IMG/VR virus record: IMGVR_UViG_3300013005_000033
Location: 1-64,000 of that record
DNA length: 64,000 nucleotides
Direction: 5' to 3' (one strand)
Source of the DNA: an uncultured virus (IMG/VR IMGVR_UViG_3300013005_000033)
Taxonomy: Duplodnaviria; Heunggongvirae; Uroviricota; Caudoviricetes
A program made the translations under genes and the position numbers. Numbering within the stretch: position 1 is the stretch's first letter; every line of letters begins with the position of its first letter. A model generated the notes under the pieces. That model made no database searches and was not told the DNA's origin. It saw nothing but the letters and a program-made list of their open reading frames with translations. Of the stretch, positions 4,674-28,026 are shown in pieces.

Positions 4674-5672
4674 TTAGTTCTTATCCATTTCTAAAAGACG
4701 AGATAACATTCTCTCATGAGACTTGCTTATTTCTTTAGGCATTTTTAATCTAGCTTCCACCAACAAGTCTCCCTTTATGCTTGGATTACGAATTGATGGC
4801 ATTCCTTGACCCTTGACTCGCAACCTCGTTCCGGCCATTGTCCTCGGGGGTATTCTTATCGATAGTTTCGTTCCGAATATATCGTAGGAAATTTCACCTC
4901 CCAGCACGAGAACGGAATATGGAACATTGACATGTCCGACAAGAAAATTGCCGTCCCTGGAGAGGGAATCGTCTTTTTCCACATTTACCACAACAAACAA
5001 ATCATTTCCATCCGCCGCAGCACCGGCCATTCGAATTTGGGTAGCATCCTCTACGCCAGCCGGTATTTTCACCTCTACTTCTTTGACAAAATCAACCAAA
5101 AATCCATTGCCGACGCACTCCTCGCATTTCTTAGCAGGGACTGAGCCCCGGCCCAAGCATACAGAACAAGAAGTTTGAATCCTCAAAGGCCCATTGTTTG
5201 AAAACACAAAGCCTTTGCCCGAGCAGCTGCCGCAAGCATCCCAAGAGGTCGAGCCTGTTCCTTTGCAAGAATCACAAGACTTTCTCTTTTCGGTCTTGAC
5301 ACTCTTTGTGGTGCCTAAATAGGCTTCCTTGAGGGAAACCTTCACCCTGACCTTTGATCCTCCCAAGGCTGACTTTTGATCACCAAAAAAATGATGAAAG
5401 ATGTTGTCAAAAACATCGTCCACGGAGTTTCTGCTCCTGAAGCTGAAACTTGGGGCGCTTGAGCCTCCAAAAAAGTCAAACTTTTTGCGCCTTTGCTCAT
5501 CCCCTATCAACTCAAAGGCGGCCGAGATCTCTTTGAACTTCTCGGCCGCCTCGGCTGTATTTTCCGGATTCTTATCGGGATGATATTTGGCCGCCAAAGA
5601 CCTGTACGCCTTGGCTATCTGATCTTGAGAGGCGTCTCTGCTTACTCCCAAAACAAGGTATGGATCCATCAT
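4674..5672 (-). CDS. dnaJ: DnaJ chaperone
   Basis: J domain with YHPDKN, four CxxCxGxG repeats, C-terminal GDL. Confidence 0.95.
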   Translation of the reverse strand: MMDPYLVLGVSRDASQDQIAKAYRSLAAKYHPDKNPENTAEAAEKFKEISAAFELIGDEQRRKKFDFFGGSSAPSFSFRSRNSVDDVFDNIFHHFFGDQKSALGGSKVRVKVSLKEAYLGTTKSVKTEKRKSCDSCKGTGSTSWDACGSCSGKGFVFSNNGPLRIQTSCSVCLGRGSVPAKKCEECVGNGFLVDFVKEVEVKIPAGVEDATQIRMAGAAADGNDLFVVVNVEKDDSLSRDGNFLVGHVNVPYSVLVLGGEISYDIFGTKLSIRIPPRTMAGTRLRVKGQGMPSIRNPSIKGDLLVEARLKMPKEISKSHERMLSRLLEMDKN

Positions 5673-17003: not shown

Positions 17004-17975
17004 TCAGTTCCCAAAACCGACTATGCCCAAATTTTCCTTTACAGAAGGAATCAAGGACTTGACGACATCCACGACTATGCTGTTACCCAAATAAAATATT
17101 TTTTGCTCATCTCCTATCTCTAAAAAATCAAAATCATTGGGGAAGCCGAACATCTTGAGGCACTCTCCGACATTGAGCCTTCTGATGTTGTTCCCGACCT
17201 TGTAGAGACCAGTCTTTGCCCCAGGACCGCCCGAAGAAGCACAAATTGTCACGCCGCATGATCCAACGTCATAGATCCTCTCGCCTTGCCTTCCGCCCTT
17301 CTTCTTTTCGTTAGAGAATATGTTGAAAAGGATTCTAGGCTTGAACGGACGGGCCTTGGAGTTCTTGGCCACAAGATAGTGCTTGCTTCCGTCCCAACAC
17401 GAATTATCAGATCTGTCCAAGATTGAAGACACGGCACGATGTTTAGATGTCTTGTCCGGGAAGACAAAGTCGCCGGACTTTGTGGCGACCATGAAAATTC
17501 TTTGGCGACATTGGGGCGAGCCGTAATGCGCAGAATCCATCACCTTAGAAAAGAACCCATAACCTCTGTCTTCAAATGACTTCTTAATGGTTGCGTAGGT
17601 TCTTCCGTCGTCATGCGTCTTCAAGTTCTTGACATTCTCAAGAATTGCCATGGCGGGCTTTTTCGCGTCCACAATCCTCAAAATGTCATAGAATAGATTG
17701 CCCCTGTCGTCTCCGAAACCGAGCTTGGATCCAGCAATGCTGAAGGGCTGACAAGGGAAGCCCGCACAAAGAATTTCAAAATCAGGCAAGGATGAGGCAT
17801 CAACGCTTTTGATGTCGCCATGGGGATCAAGGCCGTAGTTGGCCTTGTATATTTGCCTGACCTTGTCGTTTATATCGCAAGCGAAAACGCATTTGAACTC
17901 GGGATGTTCTTTAAAGGCTTGGTGAAACGCACCCAGTCCGCAAAAAAGATCCACATACCTTGTTTGTTCCATCAA
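17004..17975 (-). CDS. DNA (cytosine-5) methyltransferase
   Basis: DLFCGLG, GFPCQPFS, ENV, QCRQR, GNS motifs. Confidence 0.95.
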   Translation of the reverse strand: MMEQTRYVDLFCGLGAFHQAFKEHPEFKCVFACDINDKVRQIYKANYGLDPHGDIKSVDASSLPDFEILCAGFPCQPFSIAGSKLGFGDDRGNLFYDILRIVDAKKPAMAILENVKNLKTHDDGRTYATIKKSFEDRGYGFFSKVMDSAHYGSPQCRQRIFMVATKSGDFVFPDKTSKHRAVSSILDRSDNSCWDGSKHYLVAKNSKARPFKPRILFNIFSNEKKKGGRQGERIYDVGSCGVTICASSGGPGAKTGLYKVGNNIRRLNVGECLKMFGFPNDFDFLEIGDEQKIFYLGNSIVVDVVKSLIPSVKENLGIVGFGN

Positions 17976-18535
17976 GGCCTCACTAAAAGTCTTTCTATCT
18001 GCTGCTGACTAGTCATCTTGGGTTCTTCAGGAGATCCTCCTCCCCATCTAAACTGGTTGTACCAGCCTCGGCGCTTGCCTGTATATCTGGTGTGGCCTTC
18101 CAAAAATCTGCGGACTGCGAATTCGGTGTGCTTGGTATAAAGCACGCTGAAAAGAGCGTCCTCAAAGTCGTCTATTTTAGGATGGTAATTCTGTCCGCAT
18201 CTAAGCAAAATTGTAAAAAGAGACCTCTTCATTGAGGTTGAAGTCCACCATAGCGAAGATCTTATCCAAGATATGTTATTTCTCTGTGTCGGGCCTACAA
18301 CAGACCTCTTGAAAAGGCCAAGTCGCTCCTCAACCTTGTTCATGAAGGCCGCTATGTTTTTAGATTTATTGGGCTTGTGACAAAAAAGAAAACGCCTTAT
18401 GCCTTGGGATTCATCTTGAAAATATTCTCTGCAATACAGCCACTCCATCGCAACAAGTGTACCGTCGGGCCTAATTTTCTCTATCCTAGAGAAAGATCCC
18501 CTATTCAACCTCTGGTACTGGGACGCTTTGGGCAT
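17972..18535 (-). CDS. Hypothetical protein
   Basis: ORF; start uncertain (MPKASQ after GGAG). Confidence 0.6.
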   Translation of the reverse strand: MPKASQYQRLNRGSFSRIEKIRPDGTLVAMEWLYCREYFQDESQGIRRFLFCHKPNKSKNIAAFMNKVEERLGLFKRSVVGPTQRNNISWIRSSLWWTSTSMKRSLFTILLRCGQNYHPKIDDFEDALFSVLYTKHTEFAVRRFLEGHTRYTGKRRGWYNQFRWGGGSPEEPKMTSQQQIERLLVRP

Positions 18536-19085
18536 CTCCACCCGACGCATCTTGCCAAGATTCGGAATCAAAACGCTCACGGCTATCCTCCCGGAACTCA
18601 AGATTCAACTTTTCGGATTCCTCCTTTGGAAGAATCCTTGATTCTATCTGTGGTTCGTTTGTTTTATCAAGAAACTCATCAAGATTCAATACCGAAATTG
18701 TGCTCCAATGAGGATCGTTCTTCGGCATGTTCTCTGGCTTTGTGTAGAAAAACATTTCTAGAGTGTACTTGTACGGCTTTTGAGCGACTTCGTCCTCGCT
18801 CATTCCCGAGAGAATGTCCTCGGCCATCATCCTGGGAACCCTGTAGGCGTCCAGCTCGGAAGCGTAAAGAAGCTTCCTCATGACTTGGGCGGTGGCCTCC
18901 ATCTTGTTCTCCGTGGATGTCAAAAGAGATATTATCTGCCTCTTCTCGTTACCCTCCACGAACTCCGCAGTGGCCGAATACTGCGCTATTATCTCGCCCT
19001 TCTCGGGAGAGCTGTTTCTTACATCTCTGAAGTAGGAGGAAAAGTTCTCCTCCGTGATTTCAATATCTTCAACTGCTGATTCCAT
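18501..19085 (-). CDS. Hypothetical acidic protein
   Basis: ORF track. Confidence 0.65.
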   Translation of the reverse strand: MESAVEDIEITEENFSSYFRDVRNSSPEKGEIIAQYSATAEFVEGNEKRQIISLLTSTENKMEATAQVMRKLLYASELDAYRVPRMMAEDILSGMSEDEVAQKPYKYTLEMFFYTKPENMPKNDPHWSTISVLNLDEFLDKTNEPQIESRILPKEESEKLNLEFREDSRERFDSESWQDASGGDAQSVPVPEVE

Positions 19086-19112
19086 GATTTAAAATAGTAA
19101 TTTTGCACAAAT

Positions 19113-21683
19113 TCAAATAGGAGACTCCATTATTTGCAACCTGGGGTCGTTTTTCTTGTCGGCAGGCACGACCTTGTATCGTATCGCCTTGGGAGGAGAC
19201 TCAAAAGTATAGGATTTAAATCCTGAGCCGGGGCGCGTCAGCCTCATTCTCATAAAATGGCCACGGTTCTGCTCCTCGTTCCAATACTCTAGCTCTTCCT
19301 TGAATCTCGTGTAGTCCTCAGACCAGAATGTGACAACCTCCACATTCCAATCCTCATCCTCCACAAGTACAAAGTGGTACTTGTTGCCCTTCTTTGAGCT
19401 CTTTTCCTGAGGCCTTTTGACGATCATCACCTCCACGCCGGCATTCACTATGTCGTCGTTCTCCTTGAATATTCCAAAAGAATGGCCGCCTATGTAGTCA
19501 GGGCTCTTCTGTATGGGGTGCTCCCAACTGAACCCGTAGTGGCGCCTTTCCAACTCAAATATATTGGGCCATTTATCTAGGGGGTATCTGTTCTGAGGGT
19601 TCCAGTTCTCCAAAGATATTGAATTTGACTTGCTGAAGTTGGCCTTGTGTTCAAAATCAAGAACGGACTTCGCATACTTCTTAACAATGACAAAAACATC
19701 AGAGGTGTCAAATTCGGGCGATATTGCAGTCTTCATAGGCGACGCGTCGCCGCCCTCAAAGACCCTCATCAGAAAATCATGGTCAAGATAGGAGTCAGAT
19801 CCCTCCCTCAGCATGGATCGTATGGACTGTTTGAGCTCATCACGGCGCTTCATCTGCCTTTTTTCTTTGTCGATGTTGCCCTTGGACCATTTTTTATAAT
19901 CCTCATAAAACTCAAGCAGAACATTGGGAGGCGCGTCTTTGAAAACGCCAAGGCAAATAAGCGGCTCTACTATTCTCTTGTCCGTGCCGAACCTGTCCAA
20001 AAAATCGGGGAAGCCGGAGAAAGGTTGCAACGATACTATCCTCTCAGCGACCTCCCTGCCTACGCCCTTAATGTTAGAGAAGCCGACATAGATCTCGTCG
20101 CCGACAATCTCGTAGTTGACCTTGCTCTTGTTGAGGTCGCATCGGTTAATCTTTATTCCGCTGCGTTCCGCTTCCCTCTTGTACATCTTCACCTTGTCCT
20201 CGTCTCCTTCAAGGCCAAGCGTGGAGCAGAAGAACTCAAGAGGATAGTGAGCCTTTAAATAAAGAAGCCTAGAGGATGTAAATGTATAGGCCACTGAATG
20301 GCTTCGATTAAATCCGTACGAAGCGAAGGATTCTATCAAGTTGAAAAGAAAGTTCATGTTCCTTTCGTCATCGGACTCTATCGGCCAACCAGTCTTCTTG
20401 CTGCCGTTCTCAAGGAACATCTGCTTGTACTTGATGAATTCGGCCGTCTTCTTTTTGCTGATTGCCTTTCTGATTTTCTCACAGTGGATGAGGGGAATGT
20501 CGCCAAGGATGTTCAATATCTTCATGACCTGCTCTTGATAAACAAGAACACCGTAGGTTCTCTCGAGAACATCCCTTATGCAACTTGGAACTTGATCCTC
20601 CCAGTCCTCCTTTCCCCTCTTTCTCTCCACATACCTTTCGTGCATCTTCATGCCAAGCGGGCCGGGTCTAAAAAGAGCAGAATAGGCGACGAGATCCTCA
20701 AATCTCTCAACTCCACCAGCTTTTATAAGCTTTCTCATTCCCTCGCCGTCGAACTGGAATATGCCTCTGGTCTCAGCCCTATTTGCAAGCTCCAAGGATT
20801 TTGGATCATTCAGATACGAAGTATCGCTCCAGTCAGACCCGCCAGGGACAGCAGAAATGCTCGCGATATCGGGATGTCTGGTCTTTACAAGATTGCAGCA
20901 GTGGGCGATTCTTAAAAGATCCTTCACCGCCAACACGTCAAACTTGATGAGTCCGACAGGTTGAAGGTCTTGGTCGTGCAAGCCTTCAGTCCACCCCGAG
21001 ACGGGGTTGCCATCGGTATCAATCATGACCGGCACAAGGTCAGATATGTTTATGTTAGAGACCACAGTGCCGCCGGCGTGCTTGCCGCGACCCCTGTTCC
21101 TGTCTATAAGGCGGCGGGCTGCGTCTGCTATCTCGGGATTGCGCTCACAGTAGGAAGAAAGGTCGGGCGTGGCTTCCAAGGCCTTCTCCCAAGTAAGAGG
21201 GCGACCTTCTTCGTCTTTATCTTGAAGATTTTTGGTTATGGTCTGAATTTCTTGGTAGTCGGCACCGTGAACCCTCGCCATGTCCAAAAGGGCAGACTTG
21301 ATTCCAAAGGTTCCGTAATTACCTATATTAACAACCTTATCCCGGCCAAACCTCCTAGGACACCAGTCCTTTCTCAAGTATTCTTGAACAACCGGGAGGT
21401 AGTCCACGTCTATGTCAGGAAATTCGCCTTGGACATAAGCAGGCTCGGAAGCGATGTCAAATTCATCGGTCAGCCCCAAGAGGTACGGAACAAGCAGATT
21501 ATTCTCATTTTTCTTGAATTTGGCTCGTTTTTCTACAAGTTCCAAAAAATACTCATGTTCCGCTTGATTGTCTATTTCTTTTATTTCAGATTTGAGCCGA
21601 TCCTTGAAATCTTTAGGATCAAGGCCTCTTTTGGAAATGCCGTCTATGCAAAGCTTGAGCAGTTTCTCTCTAGAATCTTCCAT
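19113..21683 (-). CDS. dnaE: DNA polymerase III alpha, catalytic part (no PHP domain)
   Basis: FPDIDVD, GKHAGG, GLIKFDVL, GIFQF, LFRPGP, YQEQVM, YGFNRSHS. Confidence 0.93.
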   Translation of the reverse strand: MEDSREKLLKLCIDGISKRGLDPKDFKDRLKSEIKEIDNQAEHEYFLELVEKRAKFKKNENNLLVPYLLGLTDEFDIASEPAYVQGEFPDIDVDYLPVVQEYLRKDWCPRRFGRDKVVNIGNYGTFGIKSALLDMARVHGADYQEIQTITKNLQDKDEEGRPLTWEKALEATPDLSSYCERNPEIADAARRLIDRNRGRGKHAGGTVVSNINISDLVPVMIDTDGNPVSGWTEGLHDQDLQPVGLIKFDVLAVKDLLRIAHCCNLVKTRHPDIASISAVPGGSDWSDTSYLNDPKSLELANRAETRGIFQFDGEGMRKLIKAGGVERFEDLVAYSALFRPGPLGMKMHERYVERKRGKEDWEDQVPSCIRDVLERTYGVLVYQEQVMKILNILGDIPLIHCEKIRKAISKKKTAEFIKYKQMFLENGSKKTGWPIESDDERNMNFLFNLIESFASYGFNRSHSVAYTFTSSRLLYLKAHYPLEFFCSTLGLEGDEDKVKMYKREAERSGIKINRCDLNKSKVNYEIVGDEIYVGFSNIKGVGREVAERIVSLQPFSGFPDFLDRFGTDKRIVEPLICLGVFKDAPPNVLLEFYEDYKKWSKGNIDKEKRQMKRRDELKQSIRSMLREGSDSYLDHDFLMRVFEGGDASPMKTAISPEFDTSDVFVIVKKYAKSVLDFEHKANFSKSNSISLENWNPQNRYPLDKWPNIFELERRHYGFSWEHPIQKSPDYIGGHSFGIFKENDDIVNAGVEVMIVKRPQEKSSKKGNKYHFVLVEDEDWNVEVVTFWSEDYTRFKEELEYWNEEQNRGHFMRMRLTRPGSGFKSYTFESPPKAIRYKVVPADKKNDPRLQIMESPI

Positions 21684-21689
21684 GCCTTG

Positions 21690-21718
21690 ATTCTACACGA
21701 ATGATCTCGCCGGTGCAA
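21690..21718 (-). promoter_or_regulatory. Sigma70-like promoter for the dnaE catalytic gene
   Basis: TTGCAC-17 nt-TAGAAT, ending 6 nt before the ATG. Confidence 0.6.
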
Positions 21719-21773
21719 GCTCGAAGGCTTTAAAAAAGCTGCGGGGGCTATCTATATAACTAGCGATTCAAAA

Positions 21774-23195
21774 ATGGAGCTAAAAATGGCAAAATTACCA
21801 TCTTTCCTAGAGTACTTGAACGACAAGGGCGCCGTGGTGGAGAAACCAGAAACGGAGACTGTGTCGGACTACAACGGTCCGGACGAAAAGAGCCCTCCGA
21901 ACAGCAAGGTTCCGTACAAGACACCGGTGGCGAACAAGGCCGCGGAAAAGGGAGAGAGCGGACTGGCCGAGCTCGGCGACAAGGCTCTGAAGTACGAGCC
22001 GAAAGTAGACGCAAAGACCGAGGTCAAGAAAGAGGTAATGAAGGAATATGTCGACGAAAACGGAAAGGTCGGCAAGCCAAAGGTAGACATAAACGCCAAG
22101 TATACAGGCAAGGTTCCGGAGTGCCCGCCGGGCAAGGGATCAAAGCCGTACATAAGTCCCGCCATCAAAACAGGAAAGTCCGAAAAAGGGTTGGGGGAGC
22201 TTGGACACAAAGAATTTGAATACAATCCGGACACCAAGGCTGCGTCCAAGGTTACAAAAACAGAAAATTTCTTAAACAAAACAAAGGGAATGTCGCTGGC
22301 TGAGTTCACAAAGTACATGATGGACGAGTGCGGCTGCGGACAAGTAGACGACGATACGCTGCCTTTCATAACAGCATACACCACCGGAAAATTTCAACCT
22401 CACCCCCCGGAAGTGATAAGATATGTTTCGGTTCTTGCCGACAAGAATCAAGGCATACTCAACAATCTTGTTTCAACCATGATAAGCATGGGGTATTTAA
22501 ACAAACTTCTAAAAGCCATATTTGAGCACCCAGAGGCCTACGAAGAGTTGACAAATCTGCTCAACGACGATGAAGAGGGGCCGTCCAGGTGCGACTCTCT
22601 CGTTGGATCAATAAATAATGCTTATTCAAAATTCGTCTCGGATCAAGAGGGAATGTATGAGTCCGTGAGTTCTCCGGTAGGATTCGATATGGATGACATG
22701 GACACAGAAGAATCGGACTCCACGGAAGATGAAGAAAGTGAGATTGACGATGAGCAAGAGGATTCCGAGGATTCCGACTTCGAAGACGAGGAAGATTCCG
22801 ACTTCGAAGACGAGGAAGATTCCGACTTCGAAGACGAAGGCGAGGAAGATTCCGACTTCGAAGACGAAGGCGAGGAAGATTCCGACTTCGAAGACGAAGG
22901 CGAGGAAGAAATTGCTCCAAAAAGCGAAAAGAAACTAAAAAAGAAGTTTGCTCACCATCACATCTTGGATGCCATGAGGAAGCATGGACACATGATGAGT
23001 GCGATGCAGTCAGAGTCGGTAGACAGAGAGGCCCAACTCAAGAGAATGCTGAGCCAGGTTAAGCGAGACCCCAAAATGGACAAATTCTTCTACCTGATGC
23101 CAGGGAAGTGCCCTCTGTGCGGGAAAAGAAAGAAGTCGGGAGATCCTTGCAATAATCCAGAATGCAAGGAAAGCTACGACAGAATCGAGAAGTAA
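21774..23195 (+). CDS. Large protein with acidic repeats, possibly head-internal or scaffold-like
   Basis: KLPSFLEYLND N-terminus, internally duplicated N-region, EDSDFEDE repeats, C-terminal CPLC..C..C. Confidence 0.75.
   Translation: MELKMAKLPSFLEYLNDKGAVVEKPETETVSDYNGPDEKSPPNSKVPYKTPVANKAAEKGESGLAELGDKALKYEPKVDAKTEVKKEVMKEYVDENGKVGKPKVDINAKYTGKVPECPPGKGSKPYISPAIKTGKSEKGLGELGHKEFEYNPDTKAASKVTKTENFLNKTKGMSLAEFTKYMMDECGCGQVDDDTLPFITAYTTGKFQPHPPEVIRYVSVLADKNQGILNNLVSTMISMGYLNKLLKAIFEHPEAYEELTNLLNDDEEGPSRCDSLVGSINNAYSKFVSDQEGMYESVSSPVGFDMDDMDTEESDSTEDEESEIDDEQEDSEDSDFEDEEDSDFEDEEDSDFEDEGEEDSDFEDEGEEDSDFEDEGEEEIAPKSEKKLKKKFAHHHILDAMRKHGHMMSAMQSESVDREAQLKRMLSQVKRDPKMDKFFYLMPGKCPLCGKRKKSGDPCNNPECKESYDRIEK
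22768..22908. repeat. 24/30-bp coding tandem repeat GAGGAAGATTCCGACTTCGAAGAC(GAAGGC)
   Basis: About 5 copies visible. Confidence 0.9.
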
Positions 23196-23231
23196 AACAA
23201 GTGCCCGCAATGACTTGCGGGCACTTGTTTT
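23194..23231. terminator. Bidirectional intrinsic terminator
   Basis: AAAACAAGTGCCCGCAA-TGAC-TTGCGGGCACTTGTTTT perfect hairpin between convergent genes. Confidence 0.9.
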
Positions 23232-23234
23232 TAA

Positions 23235-23516
23235 TCAAGGCGTGAGAAGGCCAGAATTGGGCAAAATGATTGCGCCTATTTGATTCAAATAGGAATTCTT
23301 GATTTCGTCCTCGGGCTCTGCTTCAAAAAGAACATTTTGGGCAGAAATTTCATAATCTTCGCTCTTGGCGAAGGGACAGAGCGGCATAGAGGCCAAGCCT
23401 TCTCTAGAAAAAATAAGCCTGTGGGGCTTCTTGAGAACGACCACCTCTCCTTTTCTCTCTATCTCGCATATCACATCGTCTCCAGTAACCAATCTAATAA
23501 GTTTGATCATGTGCAT
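23235..23516 (-). CDS. Conserved phage hypothetical protein (Sm-like)
   Basis: IKLIRLVTGDDVICEI..LKKP..PF pattern resembling small proteins of T4-like phages. Confidence 0.65.
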   Translation of the reverse strand: MHMIKLIRLVTGDDVICEIERKGEVVVLKKPHRLIFSREGLASMPLCPFAKSEDYEISAQNVLFEAEPEDEIKNSYLNQIGAIILPNSGLLTP

Positions 23517-23558
23517 TCATTCTCCTTGATCTAATACAGTTCTTGGGAATCGTTTTCG

Positions 23559-24946
23559 CTAATCCAATATTTCTGGGTCAAAAGAAAAACGAAGCTTCAT
23601 CTGCTTGCCACCTCGGGCTGGACTTAAAAACCTCGAGAAAAGAAGATCGTGCTCTATGGGGTCAACATCCGTTATGCCCAGACAATAACAAACCAAAGCC
23701 CCCACGGCAGAACCTCGGCCAGGACCCACCGCTTCAGATCCGTCACCATATCCAAGAAGTTGCCTAGAAACCCTCCTGGCCTCATCGGTCATCATCTTTT
23801 GAATGATGAAGTATGATGCGAAGCCCTTGCTACATATGAGGTCATACTCCTCCTTGATCCTACCCATATATGTCGCGTTACGGGGAAGCCGCCTCTTCTT
23901 GAAGCCAATTGAAATATATTCAAGGAGTTTCTGTTCGGCATCCTCTATGTAGGGCAACTTGACGGAGCGGTCCAGCTTAACACCCTTGGCCCGCTCGGCA
24001 ACCTTGACCGTGTTCCGCTTGGCCTCCTCAAAGAACTCAAGCGGTATCGTTTCGCTGTAGTCCGAGGCCCATTTTTCGTTGAGTTCCTCCTCGCTCTTCA
24101 TCCAGAGGTTCGTGTCTTGGAGTTCAAACAAGTCGGAAGTGTCCTCCCTGTCCATCTTCTCCTGTATCTCCTGGAGGGTCTTGCGAGTCTGCACCATGAG
24201 CATGAGACGCTGCATCTTGCTATCCTCGCGCTGGGCGTAGTGACAGTCCTGCGTCAATATTACTGGGAGCCCGTACCTCTCGTGGGCCCTGATTATGAAC
24301 TGGTTGTAGGGCTTCTGCTTGCTGAAGTCCAGAAGCATGATCTCAAGGAAGAAGTTGTCCTTGCCGAACATGCCGATGTACTTCTCAACCATAGTAAAGC
24401 CCTCGTCGTCGCCTCCTCGCTCAAACGCCTGGCCGATCTCGGAGTTATAGCAGCAAGAGGTAAATATAATCCCCTCCTTGTGCTTCAAGAGCATCTCGTG
24501 GTTGACCCTTGGCTTGTAGTAGAAGCCTCGCGTCCACGCCAATGACGAGAGATTCACTAGGTTGCTATAGCCCTTCTGAGAGGTAGCGATGGCTAGCAGA
24601 TGGTAACTCTTACCGAGCTTCTTCTTTTCCTCGGGGCTCATATCCTCCGTGCGTTCCGAGGTCTTCTCGCCCGGATTCAGTTCGGGCTGCATCGGAGAGA
24701 CATATAATTCGCAACCAAATATAGGATCCCTGCCGTACTCCTCGCAGGCTTGTATCTGCCTCGGCACGGCACCCATGGAGCCATGGTCGGTCACACAGAG
24801 AAAATTTTGATTTATTTCCTTGGCTCGGCTCGCCATTTCATGGCAGGTTCCGAAACCGTCCAAGACACTGAAATCCGTGACGGCTAGTGCAGGTGAAGAT
24901 GTTCAAATCCGACAATCTTCACCTGCGAGCCCCCTTTCTCTATCAT
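23559..24946 (-). CDS. dnaE: DNA polymerase III alpha, N-terminal PHP part; frame interrupted by 8 nt at 24879-24886
   Basis: HLHLH | TDFSVLDG, VTDHG, GCELY, FYYKPR, DCHY, GPGRGSAVG, LLFSRFL. Confidence 0.88.
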
Positions 24947-24996
24947 TTTAGGTTCCTTTAAGTTGATAATAGCCATCAAATTCTACGAATCTATGT

Positions 24997-26316
24997 CTAC
25001 TTAGTCCAGAGCACGGGACATCTATTTTTTTCCTCTTCAGTCATATCCTTGTTATTCCTAGCAAGATTTTCTAGGGCATTTTCAACCCTCACTGTATTTT
25101 CGCCGTTTTCAGAAAATGACTTTTCGTGACTAGCATGAAATCCCTTTCTGACGAAGGAGGCTTTTTTTCTTTTTTCTGGTGTGGCTTCTTGCAAGTCAAA
25201 ACCTATCAATCGAGCCAGATGAGTTATCTTTGATATGTTGCTCATGGCACAATTAGTATTGTTTTGTTTGCCATCCTTATCGTCATAGAAAAAAGCACTT
25301 CTGCCCTTATTGTTTTTCAAGAATTTTTCAGTGAAGTCTTTTATTCTTGATACTGGGACTCCCAAGTTGGACAAGTGAATCTTAGCTATCAGCCACCATC
25401 TGAAGTTAACCTCAGCAGGAATGATTCTTTTTCCAACGACCTCTTCAAATATCTGATTGTAAAATTGAGTTGCGTTTTCAACCATGTTCTCGAATTGATC
25501 AAGTTTTTTGTCAAACTCTTCATGATCAAATTCTTTCAGAATTTTCGTCAAAGAAGACTCCAAAGCAAGAGAATTTTTATCCTTGTATATGGGCTCTGCC
25601 ACTCTGTAACTCTTTGTGGTTTTATCCTTAGAAATGAACTTCAGAAAAATTGACAAATTGTCCCTTTTTTCTTTATGTTCCCTTATTCTCTTTTGGGCTT
25701 TGCTTTTTTTACAACCAACATTCAACACCGCCTTTTTAACTATTTCATGAATTCTGTTGAGCCTATGCTGCCAGAAGGAGCTAAACTCAGACAATTCTTG
25801 GCAAAATACGGTCTTGCCCAATTCAAAAGGAGTTGTAATCGTACCTTTATTGGCTCCGACAAAGCCACTTATTGCTTGCTCTATATTTTCATATTCTACC
25901 CGTTGAACTTCTAGTTTAATTTCTTGCATCATATCCTTGAAGTCTTTTGACTTTCCTTGATCAAACATTTTCTTAAACTTGTTTTGGAATCTCAAAGATT
26001 CACATATTTGCTTTATTGAAAAAAAAGTTCTCTGCAATCCGTCATTGACATATATGACATCTTCTCCTTTATAGTTATAAACTTGTATGGTGCCTGTCAT
26101 CTGGCCGCCACCCTCATTATAAAATTTGATTAGGTCTGCGTAATAGTCTTTTATTGCCTTTTCATCCCAGGCTCGCTCCCTCTGATGTTCTGGGGCTCTC
26201 CATATGTTGGGTCTGGAGGGGTACTTCTTTCCCTCCTCACTATAAATTTCGCCCGGATGAATATTTGTAAAGCATTCCCATAAAGAAAACATTGTATTCG
26301 AAATGACTCTGGTCAT
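24997..26316 (-). CDS. DUF262/ParB-like (GmrSD-type) protein with a possible C-terminal HNH-like motif
   Basis: PEHQRERAW, GTI, VNDGLQR; C-terminal HASH..N..N; visibly AT-rich. Confidence 0.6.
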   Translation of the reverse strand: MTRVISNTMFSLWECFTNIHPGEIYSEEGKKYPSRPNIWRAPEHQRERAWDEKAIKDYYADLIKFYNEGGGQMTGTIQVYNYKGEDVIYVNDGLQRTFFSIKQICESLRFQNKFKKMFDQGKSKDFKDMMQEIKLEVQRVEYENIEQAISGFVGANKGTITTPFELGKTVFCQELSEFSSFWQHRLNRIHEIVKKAVLNVGCKKSKAQKRIREHKEKRDNLSIFLKFISKDKTTKSYRVAEPIYKDKNSLALESSLTKILKEFDHEEFDKKLDQFENMVENATQFYNQIFEEVVGKRIIPAEVNFRWWLIAKIHLSNLGVPVSRIKDFTEKFLKNNKGRSAFFYDDKDGKQNNTNCAMSNISKITHLARLIGFDLQEATPEKRKKASFVRKGFHASHEKSFSENGENTVRVENALENLARNNKDMTEEEKNRCPVLWTK

Positions 26317-26429
26317 GTCTGATCCTATTGAGTAGAGTGGCGATGACTAAGTGAGAGCATACACTATTTTCTAGTGCATTTCAATAAGAAAACCAAAAAG
26401 CACATAGCCGTGATAAGACTACCAGTGAA

Positions 26430-26735
26430 CTACGGCAAAAAGCCCAAAGCCAAAGCCCTCATTGCGAAATCTTTGGGGACATCCAAACATTTATCGCCCC
26501 ATATATTTCTTATTCTCACCACGCCTTCGGGTAAAAACATGGCTCCTCCCGGGGGCGGGAGGTCGGAGCGGCATTCCTTCTCGCAGTTGACAATCGCATT
26601 CAACTTCATTCCCAAGGTCTCACAATAGTCGCACAGAGCCTTGTCGTGCGTCTGGAGTCGCGGAAGCGAAGATCTGATCGCATAGAACTTGGCCTTGACC
26701 AGTTCATGCAACTTTTCCATCAACTCTTGTTCCAT
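26430..26735 (-). CDS. Paralog-family protein (KALVLG motif)
   Basis: Ends VPKDFAMRALALGFLP. Confidence 0.7.
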   Translation of the reverse strand: MEQELMEKLHELVKAKFYAIRSSLPRLQTHDKALCDYCETLGMKLNAIVNCEKECRSDLPPPGGAMFLPEGVVRIRNIWGDKCLDVPKDFAMRALALGFLP

Positions 26736-26760
26736 CACGGAATCTCCACGATGGCTGGGC

Positions 26761-28026
26761 CTAGAACAACTCTTTGATGACCTTGCCGGAGTTGGCAATC
26801 TTCATCGGGCGGCCGTTCTTGGCGGTGAATGTAGTCTCAAGAGATATCCCAAGAGACTTCAAGACGCTGGCCATGACGTCTTGGGACGAGTAGGGTTCGG
26901 TAACCACTTCCTTGCCGTCGGAGCTTGTTTCGCCGACCACCACGCCGCGCTTGAAGCCGGCGCCACCGACCACCACGCTCCAGCTCCTCGCCCAGTGATC
27001 CCGGCCGCCGTTGCCGTTGATATTGGGCGTACGGCCGAATTCTCCCATCCAGATGATGGCCGTGTCGTCCAGCATTCCCCGATCTGAAAGATCCGACACC
27101 AGGGCGGACATGGCTTTGTCCAATTCTGGGAGTTTTTGGTCGGACAGGGTGGGAAATATATCGGCATGGTTGTCCCAGCCGCCGAGATCAACCTCCACGA
27201 AGGGAACACCGGCCTCCACGAGCCTACGGGCGAGCAGACAGCCCCGGCCGAAGCCGGTGGCTCCATACCTATCTTGAACCTCCTTGGGCTCCTTGGCAAC
27301 CTTAAAGGCCTCCATTTGCTCGCTTGTCATGAGCCTCACGGTCTTGTCAATCACCTTCTTGTGATCCTCGGCGAAGCCGCCGCGCCTCTCGCCTATAAAC
27401 TTGTCTTCTATAGTCCCTAGCATCTTCAGTCGCTGTTCTATACGGGACGGATCAATCCCCATGTCAAGGTCTCTAACCTGGCCGTTGGAATTGACAACGA
27501 ACGGCGCCCAAGTCATACCCAGGAAGCCGGGGCCGACGCTCCCGCCGCCCACGGAAACAAAAGGCGGAATCTCAAGATTTGAGATCTGCTCGGAAAGTTC
27601 GTGCGAGATTACGGATCCATACCCCGGGTGTTCTATGTTGGGATTCGGCACATATCCCGTGTGCATGTAATAACGCCCTCGCATATGGTCGGCCTCGCGC
27701 GTACTCATTGACCGCACTATTGACATATGGTGCATCTGCTTGGACATCAGCGGAAGGTGCTCACAAATGGCTATTCCTTCTGCGCTGGTGGATATCTGCT
27801 TGAATGGGCCACCGGTCGCAGATCCGGGCTTCAAATCCCAAAGATCCATTGTGCTAGGTCCGCCGCCCATCCATAACAAAATTGCAGCCTTGTGCCGCTT
27901 CTTGATGTCAGCTGCATTTGCAAGGAGCGAATTGGTGAATGCCATTGCGGGCGCCGCCATCGCAGTCGCTCCCGCAAGGTGACTCATAAAATGGCGTCGG
28001 CTCATTCCGTCTGGTGTTTGAAGCAT
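26761..28026 (-). CDS. DUF1501 family protein with Tat-type leader
   Basis: SRRHF, LWMGGGPS..D.WD.KP, FGRGCLLARRLVEAGVPFVEV, GGWDNH, GEFGRTP, GRDHW. Confidence 0.92.
   Translation of the reverse strand: MLQTPDGMSRRHFMSHLAGATAMAAPAMAFTNSLLANAADIKKRHKAAILLWMGGGPSTMDLWDLKPGSATGGPFKQISTSAEGIAICEHLPLMSKQMHHMSIVRSMSTREADHMRGRYYMHTGYVPNPNIEHPGYGSVISHELSEQISNLEIPPFVSVGGGSVGPGFLGMTWAPFVVNSNGQVRDLDMGIDPSRIEQRLKMLGTIEDKFIGERRGGFAEDHKKVIDKTVRLMTSEQMEAFKVAKEPKEVQDRYGATGFGRGCLLARRLVEAGVPFVEVDLGGWDNHADIFPTLSDQKLPELDKAMSALVSDLSDRGMLDDTAIIWMGEFGRTPNINGNGGRDHWARSWSVVVGGAGFKRGVVVGETSSDGKEVVTEPYSSQDVMASVLKSLGISLETTFTAKNGRPMKIANSGKVIKELF

Follow-up and report, generated by a model that had tools for sequence, protein, structure and literature searches.

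A probable programmed short translational bypass at the interrupted 5′ end of a phage dnaE gene

The dnaE gene of the window and its interruption

The window analysed here is a stretch of 64 000 nucleotides from an uncultured tailed phage. On its minus strand, the 5′ end of dnaE consists of a short open reading frame (ORF1), a TAG stop codon that opens an 8-nt gap, and a long open reading frame (ORF2) in another frame. ORF1 translates as MIEKGGSQVKIVGFEHLHLH and is followed by TAG. As a previous reading of the sequence alone had pointed out, deleting the gap (24886–24879) fuses CAC to ACG GAT TTC and restores HLHLH-TDFSVLDG, which places the interruption inside the first metal-binding motif (HxH) of the PHP domain. 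The features of the locus, in the order in which they would be transcribed, are as follows.

24997–26316, minus strand: upstream neighbouring gene, 439 aa, weakly GmrSD_N/DUF262-like; a possible nuclease
24954–24958, minus strand: Shine–Dalgarno-like AAGGA, 7 nt upstream of the ATG at 24946, read from the sequence
24944–24946, minus strand: upstream in-frame ATG, first candidate start of ORF1 (20 codons), from the sequence
24930–24937, minus strand: internal Shine–Dalgarno-like AAAGGGGG, candidate ribosome-binding site for the GTG at 24922 or candidate recoding stimulator
24915–24926, minus strand: hairpin 5′ arm GCAGGTGAAGAT; 96 of 96 cells paired, one compensatory pair
24920–24922, minus strand: in-frame GTG within the 5′ arm, second candidate start of ORF1 (12 codons, VKIVGFEHLHLH), from the homologous GTG
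24901–24914, minus strand: hairpin loop of 14 nt, with a small 3-bp inner stem predicted by folding
24889–24900, minus strand: hairpin 3′ arm ATCTTCACCTGC, coding for part of HLHLH, with its end at base 1 of the take-off codon
24887–24889, minus strand: candidate take-off codon CAC, last His of the HxH metal-binding motif, from the sequence
24884–24886, minus strand: UAG stop, in the A site at the proposed take-off, from the sequence
24879–24886, minus strand: putatively untranslated 8-nt gap TAGCCGTC, closing with GTC, on which the P-site tRNA presumably lands, from the sequence
24877–24879, minus strand: decoy CAC, a perfect but out-of-frame match to the take-off codon, from the sequence
24876–24878, minus strand: resume codon ACG (Thr), codon 1 of ORF2, from the junction, selection and structure alignment
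24854–24860, minus strand: GACGGTT, possible 3′ partner (7 bp) of the gap bases AGCCGTC (24885–24879)
23559–24878, minus strand: ORF2, of 439 codons and a stop, the DnaE N part (PHP domain and beginning of the palm); PHP E = 3.4e-37
19113–21683, minus strand: DnaE C part (remaining palm, fingers, HhH), 856 aa, encoded as a gene of its own, from profile matches

ORF2 codes from 24878 to 23562 and stops at 23561–23559. The approximately 440 intact codons of the earlier reading are thus real, but they hold only the N-terminal part of DnaE, the rest being a separate gene (21683–19113). The two parts match successive portions of the DNA_pol3_alpha profile, positions 10–98 of 260 for ORF2 and 100–260 of 260 for the C part, which also matches the finger domain (E = 3.7e-40) and HHH_6 and contains FPDIDVDY, taken as the palm motif with the catalytic aspartates. 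The best solved relatives are Pol III α chains (E = 1.3e-45). The window dnaE therefore encodes DnaE (Pol III α, a C-family polymerase), with its domains spread over two genes. The alignment of ORF2 to the solved Pol III α chain 5lew_A begins at the residue right after the HxH of 5lew_A, and the later DHG, E, H, C and DxH motifs, which we take to be PHP metal ligands, are retained in ORF2.

ORF1 has two candidate starts. The AAGGA (24958–24954) and the ATG (24946–24944) noted previously are both present, followed in frame by the TAG, and an in-frame ATG lies 8–10 codons before the GTG in all eight window-type relatives. This ATG is not the only good candidate: the GTG at 24922–24920, located 7 nt after the internal Shine–Dalgarno-like run, is at least as good a start, or a better one. 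The homologous GTG is the start of the uninterrupted relatives L004 and L061, and AAAGGR is kept in 8/8 window-type sequences, as AAAGGAG or AAAGGAA in the relatives. An in-frame ATG or GTG lies within the hairpin 5′ arm in all 16 interrupted genes described below.

Reassignment of TAG, or an alternative code, was rejected as an explanation of the interruption: TAG terminates 14 of the 56 ORFs of at least 200 codons, neither the window nor the 78 kb record yielded a tRNA gene, suppressor tRNA included, and the frame changes across the gap.

The interruption recurs in related phage genes

Confronted with a lone 8-nt indel in a single metagenomic contig, one would normally assume an assembly or sequencing error, or a recently inactivated gene. 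On the assembly error, which the earlier reading had proposed to exclude by mapping reads, independent assemblies gave a clear result: Logan contigs from four lake-water runs (2018–2024), some of which may be the source of the window, cover 24600–25200 with no differences and no indels, and so carry the 8 nt unchanged. Word depth was 19–61 in three of these runs and 2.9 in the fourth. A further gap variant, TAGTTCTT, was found in a run contig; no RNA run was among the sequencing runs that hold the window stretch.

We classified 98 unique dnaE 5′ ends by script, 48 of them phage-like and 50 bacterial-like in our own classing. Sixteen of the 98 are interrupted, which corresponds to 16/48 phage-like and 0/50 bacterial-like ends. 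The sixteen come from many samples and several phage dnaE clades, with gaps of 5–11 nt at the same HxH motif, and the gap opens with TAG, TAA or TGA in 16/16 and also in L003. Conservation of the stop, the short gap and the hairpin, suggested earlier as a check, was thus found in 16 unique relatives. In the window clade, the gaps are TAGCCGTC (window), TAGCTAAC (L006, L054, L060), TAGTTAAC (L059 and L008, the latter with 60% identity) and TAGTTTTTT (L055), together with the shorter TAGCTT (L005) and TGAAT (L007). L019, from another clade, has the gap TAGTTTAC. A clade with serine take-off codons, ∼29% identical to the window, carries TCT-TAAGTGGG-TCA, TCT-TAAGTGAG-TCT, TCC-TAAGTG-ACT and TCC-TAGAGA-TCA, and L003 reads CTC-TAA-CTT-GAT six codons further downstream. 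In the search for cultured relatives, none above 35% identity was found for the serine clade, and a search of the L019 protein against viral contigs matched only L019 itself.

In the uninterrupted relatives L004, L061 and L062, HLHLH-T/S-DFS is unbroken, and the closest match to the window DnaE N part in the phage collection, from an uncultured 595 kb phage (53% identity), is also uninterrupted. At least seven changes of gap state are needed on the tree, a pattern that would fit mobility.

With dS above 1 between interrupted lineages, dN/dS of ∼0.06 and invariant hairpin arms, an error or a decaying gene is hardly credible, and the architecture is real, conserved and stable in nature.

A hairpin ends directly in front of the stop

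The perfect 12-bp inverted repeat with a 14-nt loop reported previously is confirmed: the window arms, of 12 nt each, are 100% complementary and end 2 nt short of the stop, on base 1 of the final His codon. It folds with −23.2 kcal/mol (z = −4.2), and 0/200 shuffles were as good. The 64 kb window contains only six inverted repeats of at least 12 nt with arms at most 40 nt apart, two of which are intergenic terminator-like hairpins. Among 5775 stop triplets scanned on both strands, 118 have a stem of at least 8 bp ending 2 nt before them; inspection of these by eye, which was not systematic, gave no second case of a short ORF followed by a continuing one. In an Rfam scan of 18000–27000, the only matches were two below threshold, attributed to chance, and both fell on the terminator hairpin at 23193–23285.

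The same structure is found in the relatives. The 60 nt before the stop fold with −17.2 to −23.9 kcal/mol in 16/16 interrupted genes, and in 15 of these exactly 2 nt separate the stem from the stop. In contrast, the strongest fold among the uninterrupted phage-like genes (n = 32) is −10.0 kcal/mol, with a median of −5.8, and only 1/82 uninterrupted genes (phage-like and bacterial-like) reaches −17 kcal/mol or below. The z-scores are −2.9 to −5.0 for interrupted genes versus +0.1 to +1.2 in three uninterrupted ones. Such a hairpin 5′ of the take-off site is present in 16/16 interrupted and 0/32 intact phage-like genes, a comparison between sequences that share kinship and are not phylogenetically independent; the hairpin co-occurs strictly with the gap. 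The arm sequence varies between clades while its position is kept. Pairing within clades holds in 100% of cells; L055 and L022 show double changes from G-C to A-U, and L005 and L041 show G-U intermediates. This covariation is thin, one compensatory pair per clade, and its score was reached by shuffle controls in 75/500 and 192/500 trials.

A second pairing could involve the gap itself. The AGCCGTC/GACGGTT pairing in the window (7 bp) is marginal, with P ∼0.07, and in most His-type relatives pairing of the gap with downstream codons shows no excess over chance. It is clearer in the serine-take-off clade than in the window, with 6–8 bp at one fixed offset and covariation.

Both sides of the gap are under protein-level selection

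ORF2 has a median dN/dS of 0.06 at dS ∼1.2 (36 pairs) from the first post-gap codon on. Third positions vary in 9–11 of 12 codons in every 36-nt block of ORF2, compared to 4/12 in ORF1 and 0/6 inside the hairpin arms. TDFSVLDG, the eight codons right after the gap, is conserved as protein while synonymous change is saturated, its Ser codons switching between AGT, TCG and TCC and its Leu codons between TTG, CTT, CTA, CTG and CTC. In ORF1, the HxH amino acids are kept across clades with different codons. The codons on both sides of the gap are thus under selection at the protein level.

These data bear on the possibility that no recoding takes place, with ORF1 acting as a leader peptide that controls a DnaE started downstream and devoid of the HxH ligands, or with ORF2 translated by termination–reinitiation. 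The hairpin holds the start codon and could be a translational switch, an in-frame TTG is available at 24863 in the window and in L007, and E. coli-type PHP domains work without the full metal site. However, no post-gap start codon is conserved among the window-type relatives. That Leu codon is TTG, and hence a potential start, in only 2/8 window-type sequences (CTT, CTA, CTG or CTC in the others), and the ATG at 24836 is specific to the window. A downstream start is also difficult to reconcile with the protein-level conservation of the eight post-gap codons, with the HxH residues retained in ORF1, or with the integrity of all later PHP motifs. Once the hairpin is folded, 12–18 nt separate the Shine–Dalgarno-like run from the resume codon, and none of the resume codons is a start codon. 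We consider this explanation unlikely.

A split ribosome-binding site, in which the hairpin would bring the Shine–Dalgarno-like run close to a post-gap start, was also tried and rejected, given this folded spacing and resume codons of ACG, ACT, ACC, TCT, TCG, AGC and AGT.

Gap lengths favour a hop over a frameshift

The earlier reading had left a hop and a −1 shift side by side; the hop is favoured, whereas the −1 shift finds no slippery site. A −1 frameshift at CAC-UAG in the window, combined with stop readthrough in relatives with in-frame gaps, would insert two or three extra residues (HLHLH-LAV-TDFS). Frameshifting is known to be stimulated by a stop codon in the A site, all variants with gaps of 8 nt or 5 nt keep the −1 frame open through the gap, the inserted residues would begin with Leu every time, and tblastn aligned L006, L007, L008, L054 and L060 from residue 1 of the read-through frame. 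However, C CTG CAC TAG does not offer a slippery X XXY YYZ heptamer, and GCA gives tRNA-His no way to re-pair; the strong structure is found upstream and not 5–9 nt downstream of the site; and readthrough would lack an encoded suppressor tRNA. Furthermore, HxH directly precedes the T/S residue in the 82 uninterrupted 5′ ends, with no inserted residues, and to our knowledge this spacing holds across the wider PHP family. Finally, gaps of 5, 6, 8 and 9 nt stand behind an identical hairpin in sister lineages; the in-frame gaps of 6 or 9 nt (L005, L055, L041, L022) would need another mechanism and no single frameshift explains the set, which is why we favour a hop. The frameshift explanation is accordingly improbable.

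A classical hop between matched codons was rejected for the window. As had been cautioned, CAC to CAC lands out of frame: the second CAC (24879–24877) leads into a dead frame that stops after 13 codons. This decoy is also present in relatives whose resume codon is ACN. The in-frame landing triplet GTC matches the take-off CAC at the third base only, with the perfect CAC 2 nt further on, so that matched take-off and landing codons are not found in the window. In the eight His-type gap variants the landing triplets are GTC, AAC, AAC, TAC, CTT, CTT, TTT and AAT, with a pyrimidine end in 8/8 and a match at position 2 in only 4/8. The serine and leucine cases have synonymous take-off and landing codons (UCU to UCA, UCU to UCU, CUC to CUU), as is classical for bypassing.

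A model for the bypass

Taken from the sequence comparisons, the probable explanation is that ribosomes perform a short programmed bypass ('stop-hop') near the beginning of phage dnaE. The earlier proposal of programmed recoding, as opposed to decay or error, gains support from the 16 relatives, the absence of the arrangement from uninterrupted genes, the independent assemblies that carry the 8 nt, purifying selection on the codons directly behind the gap, the covarying pairs and the suppressed synonymous change in the arms. Ribosomes would initiate on ORF1 at the GTG at 24922 and/or the ATG at 24946 and translate to the His codon CAC (24889–24887), at which point UAG enters the A site. Instead of terminating, a fraction of them would retain the peptidyl-tRNA, move ahead by 8 nt across TAGCCGTC and take up translation again at ACG (24878). 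The product would read HLHLH-TDFSVLDG at the junction and be a DnaE N part whose PHP metal site is complete. At take-off, the hairpin 3′ arm would be the mRNA between the P site and the mRNA exit, and its last pair would include base 1 of the take-off codon. Re-formation of the hairpin behind the stalled ribosome could destabilize the codon–anticodon pairing and pull the mRNA forward, comparable to what has been proposed for pairing at the exit in T4 gene 60.

Since the start codon sits in the 5′ arm, the hairpin would probably also throttle initiation, and the device may set a low polymerase level. Peptidyl-tRNA drop-off should compete with bypass because the nascent chain is short, at 12–20 residues. 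A point against the bypass is that the same hairpin serves gaps of 5–9 nt; hairpin geometry alone therefore cannot set the landing site.

A broader reading, which we regard as tentative, is that minimal bypass devices of 5–11 nt are widespread in phage dnaE and have been repeatedly gained or exchanged, the hairpin being a ratchet that needs no matched landing codon. The start-region, pre-stop hairpin would peel the P-site codon off its tRNA and drag the mRNA forward, and a newly loaded ribosome may push the stalled one across, because the stalled ribosome uncovers the start codon 33–36 nt behind it. If true, ribosome sliding would gain a new mechanistic class, and the phage replicase would have a built-in throttle or a sensor of release-factor activity.

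Comparison with known bypass systems

Very few natural cases of bypassing are known. They comprise T4 gene 60 with its homologues, the mitochondrion of one yeast and, as a candidate, a Streptomyces phage terminase. Our full-text literature searches found no published description of a dnaE gap or bypass.

The window site resembles T4 gene 60 and its MobA-linked homologues in having two ORFs of one enzyme subunit separated by untranslated bases. As in gene 60, the stop codon directly follows the take-off codon, the break lies at a metal-binding motif of a replication enzyme whose gene is split in two, the distribution among relatives is patchy, and mRNA structure at take-off and mRNA pairing behind the ribosome are implicated. 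Exit mRNA pairing is discussed as a driver of forward bypassing in gene 60 (bioRxiv 10.1101/2024.12.09.627546). The differences are also clear. No sequence homology with gene 60 would be expected. The gap is 8 nt here (5–11 in relatives) and 50 nt in gene 60, the window is without a matched landing codon, and ORF1 has only 12–20 codons, which makes a long nascent-peptide signal impossible. Here a 12-bp 5′ hairpin with the start codon inside it dominates; a preprint describes the 5′ stem-loop of the gene 60 family as poorly conserved (bioRxiv 10.1101/2022.08.31.505936), and a dominant 5′ hairpin is therefore not an established rule.

The terminase of Streptomyces phage phiHau3 (and a prophage) is similar in its very short non-coding blocks in a conserved phage enzyme and in the argument for bypass over frameshift from junction conservation; the gaps there are 10 nt and 7 nt, and a 5′ stem-loop and a flanking Shine–Dalgarno sequence are proposed as the stimulator (PMC10732093). 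The slow codon there is a rare sense UUA tied to the host bldA tRNA, in contrast to the stop codon here; gene and hosts also differ, with 3/100 terminases compared to 16/48 unique phage-like dnaE 5′ ends.

The byps of the yeast Magnusiomyces capitatus are mobile elements of 27–55 nt in a mitochondrial system, with matched take-off and landing codons. As proposed for the gaps here, they are short untranslated inserts in conserved genes, many in number, that ribosomes bypass (PMC5009743), whereas our gaps are 5–11 nt and lie in phage genes read by bacterial ribosomes. In the synthetic E. coli 'stop-hops' (Weiss et al. 1987, as summarized in PMC5009743), a peptidyl-tRNA likewise leaves a stop-adjacent codon, and translation picks up again several nucleotides downstream. 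This matched-codon form is exactly what L003 (CTC TAA CTT) and the serine clade (TCT…TCA/TCT) show. The synthetic cases were engineered and of low efficiency; the window site is without matched codons and comes with a hairpin dedicated to it. According to the review (PMC5009743), natural in-frame stop-hops are not known.

The cassettes are tiny (∼70 nt) and easy to synthesize, and with their natural variants in gap length, stop, landing triplet and hairpin, one could test directly which rules govern take-off, sliding and landing. Gene callers mis-annotate such phage replicases as truncated or broken. The arrangement suggests that phages can set or sense polymerase production through the choice between termination and hopping.

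Genes around the site

The genes directly upstream of dnaE in eight window-clade relatives encode an RNA ligase (two cases), a nucleoside deoxyribosyltransferase-like protein (two), an FGE-sulfatase-like protein (one), proteins of unknown type (two) and an HNH-like protein (one, L008). The RNA ligase genes, in the close relatives L054 and L055, bring up removal of the 8 nt from the RNA before translation, by cleavage and ligation or by editing, and the gap does lie between two possible helices. However, no RNA ligase stands beside the window's site, every gap begins with a stop codon, which is sensible for a ribosomal signal but not for an RNA-processing one, and we know of no splicing system that removes 5–9 nt from bacterial or phage mRNA. 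RNA-level removal is thus very unlikely.

The parallels with gene 60 (break at a metal motif, split host gene and patchiness) prompt one to ask whether such devices arise repeatedly out of conflict with homing nucleases, and by the same analogy the gap may protect the site from a homing nuclease. Unlike in gene 60, no MobA-type HNH gene adjoins the window's site. For the upstream 439-aa protein, relatives were absent among the viral contigs searched and a solved-structure profile search gave nothing useful. PF03235 is carried by one relative, the Atlas values for the neighbouring gene are 0.93 and 0.91, and all six members of its family match PF03235 with a best E = 4.8e-5, below the cut-off.

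The interrupted 5′ end of dnaE

In the window, dnaE opens as a short reading frame (ORF1) that ends in HLHLH and TAG, and resumes in a different frame as ORF2 after a gap of 8 nt. As the sequence-only reading had stated, removal of these 8 nt gives HLHLH-TDFSVLDG, and a perfect 12-bp inverted repeat is seen ahead of the stop.

Features of the site
24958-24954, minus: Shine-Dalgarno-like AAGGA
24946, minus: ATG opening ORF1, MIEKGGSQVKIVGFEHLHLH
24926-24915 / 24900-24889, minus: perfect 12-bp inverted repeat, 14-nt loop
24922, minus: in-frame GTG in the 5′ arm, with AAAGGGGG ahead of it
24886-24884, minus: TAG stop of ORF1
24886-24879, minus: gap, TAGCCGTC
24878 (ACG) to stop at 23561-23559, minus: ORF2, TDFSVLDGFGTCHE…, 439 codons
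24946-23559, minus: dnaE N gene, break at palm profile position 98/100

The fold energy of the 60 nt ahead of the stop is −23.2 kcal/mol (z = −4.2), a value equalled by 0 of 200 shuffles, and the 64 kb window holds six inverted repeats of at least 12 nt with close arms, two of them terminator-like. The sole other perfect 12-bp hairpin in coding sequence (5516-5551, in a 332-aa ORF at 4674-5672) has no in-frame stop adjoining.

The gap is not an artefact. Independently assembled contigs from four lake-water runs (2018–2024), from some of which the window itself may derive, cover 24600-25200 with no differences and no indels, so that the 8 nt, for which an assembly error had been considered, are present in each. 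The genetic code is standard, with TAG terminating 14 of 56 long ORFs, and no tRNA genes were found in the 78 kb viral record to which the window belongs; with an estimated completeness of 16% for this record, the phage would be very large and the record a fragment of it.

ORF2 is under selection from its beginning: over its first 120 codons the median dN/dS of 36 pairs is 0.06 (dS about 1.2), and the eight post-gap codons are held as TDFSVLDG or SDFSVLDG through multiple synonymous changes. Aligned to a solved Pol III alpha chain, ORF2 begins at the residue directly after the HxH of the chain and keeps the later conserved PHP motifs, which we take to be metal ligands; a complete site therefore requires the two histidines of ORF1.

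Gaps and hairpins in related genes

Homologous dnaE loci (L-numbers) were collected from viral contigs using ORF2 (23), a distant interrupted relative (27) or another relative (1) as query, and from metagenome contigs (79). Of these, 98 unique 5′ ends were classified by script; for L061 (intact) the upstream sequence was too short, and L002 (intact) and L003/L058 were judged by eye. L024 and L025 were set aside as too divergent, and L064, L120, L124, L130 and L131 because the 5′ end is missing. The gene is interrupted in 16 of the 98 ends (16/48 phage-like, 0/50 bacterial-like), all with a hairpin, so the combination of stop, short gap and hairpin that the sequence-only reading had proposed to look for does recur.

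Take-off codon, gap, resume codon and gap length in interrupted genes (close relatives of the window, 85–93% identity; serine clade, ~29%)
Window: CAC, TAGCCGTC, ACG; 8 nt
L054, L006, L060: CAY, TAGCTAAC, ACG; 8 nt
L059: CAC, TAGTTAAC, ACT; 8 nt
L055: CAT, TAGTTTTTT, AGC; 9 nt
L005: CAC, TAGCTT, AGC; 6 nt
L007: CAC, TGAAT, TCG; 5 nt
L008 (60% identity): CAT, TAGTTAAC, ACC; 8 nt
L019 (25% identity): CAT, TAGTTTAC, TCT; 8 nt
L009, L027, L029 (serine clade): TCT, TAAGTGGG, TCA
L030 (serine clade): TCT, TAAGTGAG, TCT
L041 (serine clade): TCC, TAAGTG, ACT
L022 (serine clade): TCC, TAGAGA, TCA

In the serine clade the break lies one codon later, past HVHS. One short run contig carries an extra gap variant, TAGTTCTT, and no break is present in L004, L061, L062/63, L002 and 25 members of the other clade.

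Hairpin and gap go together. In all 16 interrupted genes the 60 nt ahead of the stop have fold energies between −17.2 and −23.9 kcal/mol, and the strongest fold among the 32 phage-like uninterrupted genes is −10.0 (Mann–Whitney P = 2.7e-10 over all 98 ends, which are not phylogenetically independent). The stem ends exactly 2 nt ahead of the stop in 15/16, and its position is unchanged among the window clade, L008, L019 and the serine clade, with differing arm sequences. Within clades all cells pair, each alignment having one G-C to A-U double change and G-U intermediates; the covariation score is not strongly above shuffles, being reached in 75/500 and 192/500 trials for the two alignments. 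Third-position variation among the eight sequences of window type affects 9–11 of 12 codons per 36-nt block of ORF2, 4/12 in ORF1 and 0/6 inside the arms. An in-frame ATG or GTG lies within the 5′ arm of every interrupted gene. This is partly a matter of chemistry, because a His codon has a start codon as its complement, but the ATG or GTG is in frame in every case, and in the serine clade no other start is available. A second helix of 6–8 bp between the gap and downstream codons, at one offset and with covariation, has good support in the serine clade and is marginal in the window.

Possible translational bypassing

Comparison among relatives gives strong support to what would be a new form of programmed translational bypassing. 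With one and the same hairpin, gaps of 5, 6, 8 and 9 nt occur, which a single frameshift cannot explain, and no slippery site is present; readthrough of the stop is incapable of changing frame. Internal initiation would lose the conserved, selected codons and has no conserved start, a start-type codon occurring among the post-gap codons in only two of eight window-type genes. A short bypass accounts for all gap variants and is thus preferred.

On such a bypass, the ribosome would stall on the stop and the hairpin would re-form behind it, powering the slip, a proposal borrowed from work on T4 gene 60 (bioRxiv 10.1101/2024.12.09.627546; 10.1101/2022.08.31.505936) and phiHau3 terminase (PMC10732093). 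The 3′ arm corresponds to the mRNA between P site and exit, and the last pair involves the first base of the codon at take-off. In the serine and leucine cases the ribosome would leave from and land on synonymous codons. In the His cases the landing triplet (the last of the gap) is not cognate, being GTC in the window and AAC, TAC, AAT, CTT or TTT in the others, with a pyrimidine at the third position in all. The device may plausibly throttle polymerase synthesis. Our literature search found no published description of a gap or bypass in dnaE.

L003 (3008-3022; also L058), closely related to the window, has no gap at the window's site and reads CTC TAA CTT GAT six codons on, a candidate matched-codon in-frame stop-hop; according to a 2016 review (PMC5009743), no natural in-frame case is known. 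L003 has its own long-range hairpin enclosing a GTG start (z = −3.5), with the stem ending 3 nt ahead of its stop.

N and C parts of dnaE

The sequence-only reading had counted about 440 intact codons; 439 are open, but they encode the N part of DnaE only. ORF2 contains the PHP domain (E = 3.4e-37) and positions 10–98 of the 260-position Pol III alpha palm profile, and an 856-aa gene (21683-19113, minus) has positions 100–260, the fingers, an HhH domain and FPDIDVDY; dnaE is thus also divided between an N gene and a C gene. No intein-like sequence was found at the break. A weak resemblance (E = 0.055) between N part residues 319–366 and the first ~47 residues of the C part suggests a partial duplication there. 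The split is common to relatives down to 60% identity and absent in LR756511; the most distant relative (53% identity, a 595 kb uncultured phage) has a contiguous single dnaE.

The two parts are separated by a 93-aa gene, a perfect 17-bp hairpin (23194-23231, 4-nt loop) and a convergent gene whose product has acidic repeats. The hairpin, between convergent genes, is likely a bidirectional terminator, and gave only two chance, sub-threshold matches in Rfam. The convergent 473-aa ORF (21774-23195, plus) has a Cys-rich C-terminus and an acidic 30-nt tandem repeat (22781-22909, 4.5 copies); it matched no family, and homologues occupy the same place in L003, L004, L006, L008 and L060.

Origin and neighbouring genes

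In a tree of 48 unique N parts of phage DnaE, at least seven changes are required to account for the interrupted state, six of them forced by well-supported branches, and interrupted genes of different subclades carry the same 5′ cassette. Together these point to exchange of the cassette by recombination, which we liken to the mobile element around the bypass of T4 gene 60. Among the upstream genes examined in the window and its relatives, a linked homing nuclease was not evident at the window's site; these genes vary, and only L008 has an HNH-like one. The window's upstream gene (24997-26316, minus) encodes 439 aa with a DGLQRT motif, has only five relatives in a large protein database and weakly resembles GmrSD_N/DUF262 (6/6 family members, best E = 4.8e-5, below the cut-off).

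Other neighbours were recorded. L059 has a TnpB/Cas12f-like fragment (1-681; TNB domain E = 9e-5; PHROG transposase) ~0.6 kb upstream of its interrupted dnaE. Upstream of the interrupted dnaE of L022, a PD-(D/E)XK exonuclease (1829-2926) is in two ORFs (217 + 148 aa), either another break or an error; its relatives have one ORF of 354–361 aa. The window encodes a C-5 cytosine DNA methyltransferase (17004-17975, minus; E = 7e-71), and a related methylase lies directly upstream of the uninterrupted dnaE of L004. Finally, a DUF1501 protein (26761-28026, minus; E = 4e-103), with a weak, sub-threshold twin-arginine signal match (E = 0.0094), is encoded in a region of G+C 0.52 compared to about 0.44 nearby, and is unusual as phage cargo.
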